Shown here: positions 1,830 through 8,754 of the stretch, one piece after another
Layout of the letters: each line of letters opens with the position of its first letter
Numbering within the stretch: position 1 is the first letter of the stretch
NCBI GenBank assembly: GCA_018238545.1
Contig: JABCTC010000070.1
Location: forward strand, 1-11,327
Direction: 5' to 3'
Length of the DNA stretch: 11,327 bases
Source of the DNA: Candidatus Heimdallarchaeota archaeon
GTDB lineage: Archaea > Asgardarchaeota > Heimdallarchaeia > Heimdallarchaeales > Heimdallarchaeaceae
The notes under the pieces: model-generated
Told to the model about the DNA's origin: nothing
The model's input: only the letters and a program-made list of their open reading frames with translations
The model's database searches: none
Made by a program: the position numbers and the translations under genes

Positions 1830-2051
1830 ATGCGCGAAAAATTCTCCAAACCCGGGTCGAGCCGCAAGAACATCCGTCTAGGTGATACTGTCGATATTGT
1901 CCAGAAGCGGGATCAACGCTCCGGAAATCTCACCCGTGGAGTTGTGAAAGATATCCTCACAAACTCCCCCAATCATCCTCATGGAATCAAGGTGCGGTTG
2001 CAGACTGGTCAGGTTGGGCGTGTCCAGGCAATTATCAAAGTGACACAGTGA
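1830..2051 (+). CDS. YwbE family (DUF2196) protein
   Basis: Motif VDIVQKRDQRSGNLTRGVVKDILTNSPNHPHGIKVRLQTGQVGRVQ is characteristic of YwbE/DUF2196. ATG 1830 is preferred over the GTG at 1788. Confidence 0.9.
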   Translation: MREKFSKPGSSRKNIRLGDTVDIVQKRDQRSGNLTRGVVKDILTNSPNHPHGIKVRLQTGQVGRVQAIIKVTQ

Positions 2052-2152
2052 GTGAAAAAGCCCGGCTCTCGGTTTGAATATTGAAACTACGGCTGCTTTT
2101 CTTGGCGGTAAGGGAGGTATTCTGCGCCAAAAATTTCCCGAGCCATGACGAA
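2050..2152 (-). repeat. Cassette-separating repeat R1 (gene-3'-end-like element)
   Basis: + strand AATATTGAAACTACGGCTGCTTTTCTTGGCGGTAAG...GCCATGACGAA. Minus frame reads FVMAREIFGAEYLPYRQEKQP* (TAG at 2087-2089). Hairpin is decayed. Confidence 0.9.
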
Positions 2153-2211
2153 CTTCATCTAGTGATATAATTGAAATATAAAACCTGACAACTTACTTGG
2201 TGGGATGGACA

Positions 2212-2748
2212 ATGAAAAAGGCTGCAATTATCTATTGGACAAAAACTGGGAATACTAAGAAAGTCGCCGATGCAATCAAAGAAGGTCTCAAGGCTGTTGG
2301 CTTCGATGTATCCTATTTGAGAGTTGAAGAAGCTAAAGGTCTTGATTATTTTGATTATGATCTGGTATGCATAGGTTTTCCTTCATACGAATGGAGTACT
2401 CCTAGACCCATGACCATTTTTTTGAGAACCAACTTAGCTAAGCAAAGAAAAGAGGGACTGGTCAAAGCTAGTGCTCCAAAGGTTCCGGGAAAGAATGCAT
2501 TAATTTTCTGTACCTACTCGGGACCGCATACTGGAATCAACGAGGCTATTCCAGCAGGTCTGTACGCAGGTCAGTTCTTCGAGCATATTGGATTCACAGT
2601 TTTAGATGAATGGTATGTTCTAAGTGAATTCCATGGGCATGATAAAGCGAGTACAATAGGAAAAATGGGAGATATCAGAGGGAAACCAACTAAGGAGGAT
2701 TTGATGAAGATTAAGGAGGACACACTCAACCTCGCAAAAAGTCTTTGA
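2212..2748 (+). CDS. Flavodoxin-like protein
   Basis: N-terminal FMN-binding loop IIYWTKTGNTKKVADAI, plus YDLVCIGFPSY and ALIFCTYSG. ATG 2212 follows a GGTGGGA SD-like sequence. Confidence 0.9.
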   Translation: MKKAAIIYWTKTGNTKKVADAIKEGLKAVGFDVSYLRVEEAKGLDYFDYDLVCIGFPSYEWSTPRPMTIFLRTNLAKQRKEGLVKASAPKVPGKNALIFCTYSGPHTGINEAIPAGLYAGQFFEHIGFTVLDEWYVLSEFHGHDKASTIGKMGDIRGKPTKEDLMKIKEDTLNLAKSL

Positions 2749-2776
2749 TTTGAGGGGATTATTCTGAAAAAGTGAT

Positions 2777-2847
2777 GAGAGAGGAAGACCCTCTCTCGAT
2801 TTAATATTGAAACTATGACTGCTTCTCTTGGCGGTAAGAGAAGAACT
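2777..2847 (-). repeat. Cassette-separating repeat R2
   Basis: Hairpin GAGAGAGG-AAGAC-CCTCTCTC (2777-2797) and core CTTGGCGGTAAG (2827-2838). Minus frame reads EFFSYRQEKQS*FQY*. The first 37 bp are identical to R6. Confidence 0.92.
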
Positions 2848-2947
2848 CATCCTGTCATTTCTGCCAGAGTATGGAAAATCTTTTTCTTTGTTCACATCAT
2901 ATAGGTATCAACAGGTTAGCATGAACTCACATTGAGGAGGAGCTGAA

Positions 2948-7599: not shown

Positions 7600-7820
7600 G
7601 CGGTAGCGACCTCGGCAACTAATTCTTCATCACGAAGCTTTACCAGGCGATTGAGATCTAGGTTCCTCTTTGAAAATGCAAGCACCTCAATCCCACAGAC
7701 CTCTCCCTTGGAATCATAATCGATGATAACTCCTTCAGATAGTTCAACACTCTCTGACACATCCTCTCCTTTCAGTCTGAAATAGATAGCATCTGCAACT
7801 TGATCATACTCGACTTGCAT
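7596..7820 (-). CDS. DUF2283 (YuzE-like) family protein, putative antitoxin partner
   Basis: YDQVADAIYFRL...GVIIDYDSKGEVCGIEVL signature; acidic protein; GAGGAG SD upstream. Confidence 0.88.
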   Translation of the reverse strand: MQVEYDQVADAIYFRLKGEDVSESVELSEGVIIDYDSKGEVCGIEVLAFSKRNLDLNRLVKLRDEELVAEVATA

Positions 7821-7946
7821 TGGACAATCTCCTCTTCATATCATTCTAGCAGTTATTCAGTAATATCTTCGTTGATAAATTTGCTCTCCTGTAAACTTCT
7901 AGCATTTGCTCAGTTATGCTTTCCGTTGAGTCTAAATGACTGTTTT

Positions 7947-8022
7947 TTAAATTAGAAACTTTGGCTGTTTCTCTTGGCGGTAAGGTAAGAACTCCGGACT
8001 GAATATCTCCCTGCCCGTGATA
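7947..8022 (-). repeat. Cassette-separating repeat R5 (hairpin missing)
   Basis: Core CTTGGCGGTAAG (7973-7984). Minus frame reads IITGREIFSPEFLPYRQEKQPKFLI*. Confidence 0.88.
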
Positions 8023-8087
8023 ATATCAGCTGACTGAAGCAACAATAGTGCTTTACTGATCATTATTGCCATAGATTCCGTTTCTGG

Positions 8088-8504
8088 TCAGGTTGGAGGC
8101 ACGTTAGAGTTGAAGCAATCGTATACTATCTTCCAAGAACCATCGGTTTGTTTTTTAAATAGGGTCAAGGCTTTCCCATCTGGCATAGCGCTAATCGTGT
8201 CGCCACCTGCCTTTGGAGTCAATTTCAATGTGTATTTGCATCGAGTTAATCCCAAGTCGCCATGCACTTCAACATCATCTACACTTTTGATGGCTATATC
8301 TAGCTTCATATCATCGAATACTGGTTTCATTCCATCTCGTATCTGCTCTTTCCCCTTTCTAACTGGACTGTCTGGTGGCATTTGTGTGCCTTCATCAGCC
8401 CATAGGGACATCCACAGGTCGAAATTACCTGTGTTGCAGCCTATAGCATATTGATTCAACATATCTTTAATCGCTGTGATGTCTTCCTTTCTCTCTTTTT
8501 CCAT
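8088..8504 (-). CDS. NTF2/SnoaL-like (DUF4440/YybH-type) protein
   Basis: LWADEGTQMPPDSPVRKGKEQIR, VEVHGDLG and GKALTLFKKQTDGSWKIVYDCFNS. GGAGTGA SD upstream. Confidence 0.9.
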   Translation of the reverse strand: MEKERKEDITAIKDMLNQYAIGCNTGNFDLWMSLWADEGTQMPPDSPVRKGKEQIRDGMKPVFDDMKLDIAIKSVDDVEVHGDLGLTRCKYTLKLTPKAGGDTISAMPDGKALTLFKKQTDGSWKIVYDCFNSNVPPT

Positions 8505-8669
8505 ATCCTGTTATCACTCCTTTTTGGAAGCCTGCCACTTCCAGCTGTATACACATGAATGATCTGATAAAAATCTTTCAGTAGTTGATTATAGCTCAGT
8601 TTCAACAAATTGACGTTTGTTGGATATATTAACCATCCAAAGATTGGTTGACTGGTAGAACGAGTAAAG

Positions 8670-8754
8670 GAGAGAGGAAGACCCTCTCTCGATTTAATAT
8701 TGAAACCATGGCTGCTTTTCTTGGCGGTAAGGAAGATATTCTGTTCTGAAAATC
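8670..8754 (-). repeat. Cassette-separating repeat R6
   Basis: Hairpin at 8670-8690 and core at 8720-8731. Minus frame reads IFRTEYLPYRQEKQPWFQY*. Begins immediately after the stop codon of the 8755-9132 gene. Confidence 0.92.

Follow-up and report, generated by a model that had tools for sequence, protein, structure and literature searches.

Displaced 3' ends of an acyl-CoA dehydrogenase gene delimit an array of exchangeable accessory genes in Thorarchaeota and point to probable tail-replacing homing elements

The contig JABCTC010000070.1 (G000:C126; genomes, contigs and loci carry G, C and L numbers below), filed in assembly GCA_018238545.1 as Candidatus Heimdallarchaeota archaeon, was analysed over its entire length of 11,327 nucleotides, and this whole stretch is called the window. 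It carries accessory genes separated by a repeat of ~ 110 bp on the minus strand, which corresponds to the last ~ 22 codons, the stop codon and a terminator-like hairpin of an acyl-CoA dehydrogenase (ACAD) gene. A preliminary description made from the sequence had seen an integron-like cassette array here, with five cores CTTG(G/C)CGGTAAG at 2101, 2827, 7305, 7973 and 8720, all on one strand and spaced 726/4478/668/747 bp apart. Positions, spacings and common orientation were all recovered, and a profile of the repeat family scores the five copies within the window with E values from 1e-16 to 1e-26. The degenerate copy that it placed at about 4795 is real as well but amounts to a half copy, hairpin side only, at 4790-4849 (minus strand, profile E 5e-4 in the window). 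Similarly, the repeat was rightly said to lack attC ends, but it consists of protein-coding ACAD DNA rather than of a dedicated non-coding site.

The copies in the window, all on the minus strand, are worn to different degrees. R1 (2043-2152) has its boundary at 2152, its Met codon at 2146, a TAG stop at 2087-2089 and a worn hairpin, and its peptide, MAREIFGAEYLPYRQEKQP, matches the ACAD C-terminus. The 5' coding part of R2 (2768-2878) has decayed, with an internal TGA, while its 8-bp hairpin is intact. R3 (7246-7356) encodes MAREIFGPEFIPYRQGKQM, ends with TAG at 7291-7293 and retains the hairpin; R4 (7948-8024) is the coding part alone, its hairpin being lost; and R5 (8661-8771) shows an intact hairpin and worn 5' codons. 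The two intact displaced tails, 2087-2146 and 7291-7350 (minus), open with ATG and are readable as putative 19-residue peptides. No tRNA, tmRNA or Rfam family was detected in the window. A dif/Xer-like 11-6-11 palindrome, noticed by eye in R1 and R5, was dropped as a candidate, the variation being synonymous and XerA not detected.

Copies of the repeat encode a single peptide, MAREIFG(P/A)E(Y/F)LPYRQEKQx-stop, the changes among them falling mostly at third codon positions, and behind it come the hairpin and a T-rich run. In two Thorarchaeota genomes this peptide ends, once in each, a frame of 412-414 aa, and it is otherwise found in short frames. The long frame is ACAD, a gene that is single-copy wherever it was found (48/87 genomes). 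Each repeat thus represents a past or surplus 3' end of the single-copy ACAD gene and begins at one common codon boundary, and the exchangeable accessory units that are stacked behind ACAD have these ends as their limits. In a set of 96 distinct displaced copies, conservation at codon positions 1/2/3 is 0.86/0.91/0.61 (p 3e-7) and the reading frame is still open in 82. Furthermore, agreement with the native gene steps up six nucleotides ahead of the IVMARE Met codon (position -6), from at most 0.46 outside to 0.72-0.9 inside. Grouping the 64 bases upstream of the displaced tails gave 82 unrelated sets, and no arm is conserved towards the cargo. Given the codon-type conservation, the open frames and the fixed -6 edge, the displaced copies appear to have been working gene ends until fairly recently and to have been severed at one spot many separate times. 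Two ACAD orthologues, G078:C116:678-1916 and G079:C155:8026-9264, each contain one in-frame TAG, which could reflect a shared broken gene or read-through.

An additional tail with every unit could also arise by duplication of the target site, if every insertion by a Cas1-like or transposase-like integrase copied ~ 110 bp, in the way that CRISPR arrays take up spacers. There is indeed one extra tail per unit, and the genome's own tail is the best match (rank 1) in 18/48 cases. However, no displaced copy is identical to the native tail of its own genome (best 0.94), which favours replacement of the tail over duplication of the target, and the native tails of G001, G030 and G002 are clearly different alleles from the displaced ones. 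Moreover, Cas1 was found in 1/5 and reverse transcriptase in 0/5 array genomes, and we regard such a duplication as very improbable.

The window fits its own bin poorly and is itself composite. The GC content is ~ 42% up to 9.1 kb and ~ 30% beyond, proteins encoded on the left group with Thorarchaeota and proteins encoded on the right with Promethearchaeota, and the 99% match of three other assemblies to the window ends at ~ 9178, where those assemblies enter another repeat. The contig is chimeric at ~ 9178, the junction from Thorarchaeota to Promethearchaeota DNA lying at an A/T run (9168-9178), and because GC content, protein affinities and the three assemblies all divide the contig there, the array finding concerns Thorarchaeota DNA. 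None of the listed pieces of public-run contigs bridges 9178 by 31 bases. A second assembly junction lies at ~ 11145-11170. As the tetranucleotide make-up of the first 9 kb departs from that of the 34%-GC bin, C126 is probably a contamination of its bin, with C77 (GC 0.378) being equally distant. No parent gene turned up within the bin since the contig is foreign to it, the nearest ACAD of G000 being only 34% identical, and no further repeat copies were found in the rest of the 3.6-Mb bin, including by profile search.

A chimeric contig raises the possibility that the apparent arrays are a product of assembly, in which unrelated fragments from different strains were joined through the repeats. 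This would agree with the junctions at 9178 and near 11150, with public-run contigs that break at repeats and with unit orders in short metagenome-assembled genomes that are possibly mosaic. Against it, the copies differ by 10-35%, arrays are found inside contigs of 3.16 Mb (G012), 669 kb (G028) and 77 kb (G066), and junctions are shared base for base by independent assemblies. For the existence of the array this explanation is refuted, and we give it next to no credence. Unit order in short contigs, including L092, may nevertheless be partly mosaic because the assembly is chimeric, which does not apply to arrays inside long contigs.

The distribution of the tails was examined in Thorarchaeia; apart from G000, the bin of the window, whole genomes were searched by the tail peptide only. 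The peptide matches 68/87 Thorarchaeia genomes, more than once in ~ 50 and up to 20 times, and at least three matches are confined to the class Thorarchaeia in a phylum-wide search. In G030, G066, G033, G044, G083 and G028 the tails begin directly behind ACAD and continue in the same orientation, and in G058:C128 and G066:C14 one contig holds ACAD, tails and a homologue of the first gene of the window. G012 carries five tails on its 3.16-Mb contig, where ACAD was not found, and hence represents an orphan array. Mixed orientation was observed in 0/62 fetched multi-copy loci (some overlapping) and the tails are clustered within near-complete contigs. A repetitive extragenic palindrome (REP), miniature inverted-repeat transposable element (MITE) or terminator family was rejected, the copies being clustered and co-oriented instead of dispersed in both orientations. 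The median unit measures 1.2 kb, and 95/165 units hold a single gene; cargo is convergent in 82 and co-oriented in 66. Empty units, in which neighbouring tails lie 132-136 nt apart without cargo, can be seen at L063:5408-5650 (G034) and L045:9135-9379 (G030). The cassette array is real, occurs class-wide and has displaced gene tails as its building blocks.

In the window, each repeat separates cargo of its own. A flavodoxin-family unit (2212-2748, plus strand) is followed by a beta-propeller unit (2948-4774, plus), whose 608-aa secreted or membrane protein shows a weak PD40 match and is Tricorn-like in relatives. Next to it lies a four-gene unit (4863-7241) with a 207-aa membrane protein, a flavodoxin and a 105-aa protein on the minus strand and a helix-turn-helix regulator of HVO_A0261/FilR1 type on the plus strand. 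Downstream are a DUF2283 + DUF4258 pair (7363-7820, minus), which may be toxin-antitoxin-like, and a SnoaL-like gene (8088-8504, minus). The array had been thought to end at 8754; it runs on with a further unit encoding a 125-aa membrane protein (8755-9132, minus), after which another repeat follows in relatives. The DUF2196 (YwbE-like) gene (1824-2051, plus), beside which the locus was first placed, is an old distal resident of the variable region and not its anchor, which is the ACAD gene, outside the window. PADLOC gave no matches on the cargo. The description of the cargo as functionally unrelated, in both orientations and free of integrases is supported.

Strains gain, lose and reorder these units at the repeats. 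The flavodoxin unit has other neighbours in L001, L003, L011 and L100-L103, with homology covering 2097-2830 in L003 and 2074-2823 in L011, so that the edges fall within repeats; the DUF2283/DUF4258 unit occupies many positions in relatives, and its homology in L007 starts at 7313. In the conspecific contigs L091 and L098 (95-99% identity) the four-gene unit is absent: 4820-7277, of which the half copy forms the edge, is missing and a full repeat stands exactly there. In L092 (95-99% identity) the beta-propeller unit is found on the opposite side of the SnoaL unit, and the SnoaL-like gene is missing from contigs of two public runs. Switch points between strains vary: some lie in the hairpin zone, others close to the core and others again at the coding edge, and this scatter along the repeat is as expected of homologous exchange. 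The accretion at one locus, in one orientation, of mostly single-gene units that was first proposed thus finds its counterpart in relatives as gain, loss and reordering at repeats, and neither of the two patterns then named as contrary to it was seen, the repeat not being scattered in both orientations and the content between repeats not being invariant. Of the two motors suggested at that stage, a recombinase in trans was not found, while the strain differences fit recombination between tails.

Indeed, no common recombinase emerged. Tyrosine recombinases (PF00589) gave no match in the array-rich genomes G030, G066, G044, G012 and G028, a claim limited by incomplete genomes, and most array-rich genomes lack a detectable tyrosine or large serine recombinase. 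Tyrosine integrases occur sporadically (29/87 genomes) and large serine recombinases in 2/87. None of the tyrosine integrases lies beside an array: the nearest (G083:C51) is separated from the last repeat by 19 kb, and no repeat is close to the others. The preliminary description advised a search for a linked tyrosine or serine recombinase, and no integrase was found beside the arrays. XerA, IS110, resolvase, SSV integrase, Cas1 and reverse transcriptase were searched in five array genomes and none is common to them all. Open reading frames (ORFs) beside ACAD in G026, G083 and G030, examined as hidden recombinases, have no such Pfam match. XerA or another tyrosine recombinase was undetected in G012, G028, G030, G066 and G044, several of them near-complete, and present in 14/14 control genomes.

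These searches bear on the idea that a site-specific recombinase acts in trans, using the IVMARE codons as attB and moving each unit as an excisable circle with one att site, in the manner of integrons or of cis-mobilisable elements sited at gene 3' ends. Integrative elements replace gene ends via att sites; of what an integrase-driven element at a gene 3' end should display, the fixed crossover and the supplied replacement end are present here, and a tyrosine or serine integrase within the element and a conserved attP arm are not. A fixed 5' edge with replacement tails is what attB/attP integration into a gene end leaves, the permuted order in L092 fits excision and re-insertion of a circle, and tyrosine integrases do occur sporadically. 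However, the junction shows no conserved arm towards the cargo, no integrase lies beside arrays, the tested families are all absent from G012, G030, G066 and G044, no viral contig carries the site or an ACAD tail, and the repeats share no common fold beyond the terminator hairpin. We consider such a recombinase decidedly unlikely.

The sole site-linked enzyme found is a LAGLIDADG endonuclease. The first ORF behind ACAD in G001 and G028 bears a LAGLIDADG domain (Pfam LAGLIDADG_3), the G028 protein having 606 aa, and the gene stands convergent, 105-188 nt behind the native tail, in 7/36 loci. The ACAD-linked proteins form one clade (100/99), including one member from another context, and the other clades sort by locus. 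Two motifs, YLLG-x-x-[IV]SD and FLQG-x-x-DGDG, are present with an invariant Asp, the dual catalytic motifs being intact, and the nuclease model (predicted local distance difference test, pLDDT, 88) matches I-SceI, I-DmoI and PI-SceI as well as WhiA in Foldseek. By its motifs, acidic residues and modelled fold, the ACAD-linked protein qualifies as a predicted LAGLIDADG homing endonuclease.

This family leaves its traces at the tails. In 1.49 Mb of array-centred DNA a profile of the C-terminal part of the clade gave 13 matches, seven of them from sequences that had not gone into the profile, and 13/13 lie at most 62 nt from a tail, whereas by our own arithmetic ~ 2-3% of positions in this DNA are that near a tail. 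An endonuclease ORF lies between new and old tail in G028, G001 and G042, G028 being reduced to the minimum of one new tail, the nuclease and one old tail. In G080, G012, G058 and G017 a nuclease stub of 25-50 residues is followed by cargo and then by the next tail, and for this reason some cargo units look like former nuclease elements; one of these stub matches (L152) sits at a contig end and is possibly a whole gene. A stub is also present in L097, whose DUF2283 unit matches that of the window at 96%. In G001:C49 (L026:4872-18640), a 13.7-kb unit behind ACAD ends in a displaced tail and encodes a 1073-aa LAGLIDADG protein, a HerA/VirB4-like ATPase, a restriction-modification set (type I-like by eye) and DprA-like and ComF-like proteins; the ATPase likewise lies ahead of the nuclease in G061, G023 and G018.

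The tails that accompany a nuclease mostly differ from the others. The allele RQK-x-Q is found in 5/7 nuclease-borne tails versus 4/29 other native and 3/96 displaced ones (Fisher p 0.006, kinship uncorrected), and nuclease-borne tails fit the profile of displaced sites worse (p 0.02, kinship uncorrected). From the sequences, a distinct nuclease-borne allele would be as expected for resistance to the enzyme, with G028 as an exception. Identity of body versus tail among native ACAD genes shows no clear extra drop for nuclease-linked alleles. Among the sister clades, duplicated oadA 5' ends were observed in G078 and G010 and a duplicated mazG-like 3' end in the G055 locus. These locus-specific clades (L117-L139, L156-L177) are placed at the EtfA 3' end, between mazG-like and rpl44e genes, at oadA and at a carboxyltransferase gene, gene names being assigned by eye.

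We therefore favour, as rather probable, a reading in which tail-replacing homing elements, like the mobile ORFs (mORFs) of fungal mitochondria, create the units and ordinary recombination between tails shuffles them. The element would consist of a replacement tail, a terminator and a convergent nuclease gene, sometimes with the ATPase and further cargo. Its ACAD-specific LAGLIDADG endonuclease is predicted to cut ACAD near the Ile-Val-Met-Ala-Arg codons, close to -6. Repair would copy the donor tail and the DNA behind it and then rejoin the old right-hand end, whereby ACAD would regain a complete end from the donor and its former tail would come to lie downstream. Repeated rounds, with cargo taking the place of most of the nuclease gene, would yield nuclease-free units, which could ride along whenever such a break is repaired from a donor array. 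In a second tier, ordinary recombination between tails of 75-95% similarity would delete, swap and reorder units. In G002 and G041, the genomes closest to the window, the native allele QLVVQARE is recoded across the edge and no ACAD-clade nuclease was found; for these reasons current change in the species of the window is probably recombination between tails, which also best explains the differences among its strains.

Several points weigh against this homing reading. Cleavage of ACAD by the LAGLIDADG protein is a prediction, as is the precise joining of brand-new cargo at -6. Most units, and all those of the window, show no trace of a nuclease, and the array-rich genomes G066, G044 and G047 are without any copy of the LAGLIDADG family. 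The tails borne with the nuclease in G028 and G061 are barely changed at the boundary, most sister-clade loci show no duplication, and the decay of displaced copies with distance from ACAD is non-significant (rho -0.14, p 0.36).

Part of this evidence would suit host recombination acting alone, by which DNA from relatives finds an anchor in ACAD or tail homology and is attached by an illegitimate join at its far end, the -6 edge going back to a single ancient insertion or to a few, and the LAGLIDADG gene being just one successful passenger. Crossovers between strains do vary along the repeat, many copies are halves or internally deleted, and the nuclease is missing from most units. However, the tail begins at one and the same position behind 82 unrelated flanks, which have no upstream remnant in common, where random illegitimate joins should give ragged edges or shared leftovers, and nuclease stubs are found only beside tails. 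Host recombination as the only process seems unlikely to us, if less so than a recombinase in trans. Whether homing elements amount in Thorarchaeota to an integron-like gene-capture platform, driven by a free-standing LAGLIDADG family with one conserved gene end per clade, in which tail replacement preserves the gene and accessory genes land and are shuffled at the stacked old tails with no site-specific recombinase, is in our estimate an even matter.

The nearest known counterparts are the mORFs of fungal mitochondria, described in Allomyces macrogynus atp6 and in Glomus atp6, atp9, cox2 and nad3, in which a free-standing endonuclease gene brings a foreign C-terminus that heals the target and the native C-terminus is left downstream; for the Allomyces endonuclease, the role in mobility was shown biochemically (PMC3630166). 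G028 has exactly this layout, the duplicated C-terminus with the displaced copy downstream of the insertion. In contrast to mORFs, the arrays lie on an archaeal chromosome, would have gone through up to ~ 20 rounds and mostly hold accessory genes in place of the nuclease, whose role here is predicted. With integron arrays and clusters of attC sites lacking an integron integrase (CALINs), including archaeal ones (PMC9668308), they share a tandem of mostly single-gene, exchangeable units at one locus with related repeats, and G012 would parallel an orphan array; unlike those, they have no attC ends or fold, no IntI, cargo in both directions and a coding gene tail with terminator as separator. 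No RYYYAAC...GTTRRRY pair exists in or around any of the six sites on either strand, and no shared long hairpin of attC type was detected (z 0.24, -0.30 and -0.65 for R1, R3 and R4), the terminator hairpin alone being recurrent.

A fixed position and partial direct repeats of the target end are likewise features of additive flexible genomic islands and of tandem integrative elements inserted at tRNAs or gene 3' ends (PMC5217437). These vary largely by site-directed recombination (PMC5217437), whereas no integrase was found here and the units are gene-sized (median 1.2 kb). The preliminary description had drawn this comparison and missed the origin of the repeat: the array belongs with the additive islands of gene 3' ends, the gene in this case being ACAD. 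In phage homing in trans (T4 mobE), a nuclease beside its target mobilises neighbours unable to move alone (PMC2790892), and in islands of homing endonuclease genes (HEG-islands) fragments of essential genes were proposed as recombination substrates (PMC10055350). These concern phage genomes and gene conversion without stacked tail duplications or discrete repeat-bounded cassettes. We found no description of stacked, cargo-bearing tail arrays in archaea in the literature searched, in which subscription journals are thinly covered, and PMC11529989 does not mention LAGLIDADG.

If the homing reading holds, a selfish nuclease and ordinary repair would offer an integrase-free path to modular, repeat-bounded gene arrays, and mORFs and integron-like or additive islands, known separately, would be united in Asgard archaea. 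Routes of gene uptake in Asgard archaea bear on ideas about early eukaryote gene content, and integron scanners overlook such arrays, so that a class-wide reservoir of accessory genes goes unannotated. The reading also names an enzyme clade, its target (the IVMARE codons) and predicted resistant alleles, and would provide new meganucleases with a predicted site.

The remaining parts of the window lie on either side of the array. To the right of 9178, in Promethearchaeota DNA, are an alpha/beta hydrolase (9181-10008) and a 279-aa protein, and beyond the second assembly junction a fragment with an EAL domain (11171-11326). On the left, 2-238 is the C-terminal part of a conserved 283-aa protein without Pfam match, inside the variable region, and its homologue has tails on both sides in G058, G033 and G047. 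A 372-aa membrane protein without Pfam match follows at 379-1497, its C-terminal part being longin/roadblock-like by eye. The short region 1586-1737, with a small lysine-rich ORF, is 78-87% conserved beside DUF2196 in several Thorarchaeia genomes, and in L007 a 40-aa gene has been called at this place.

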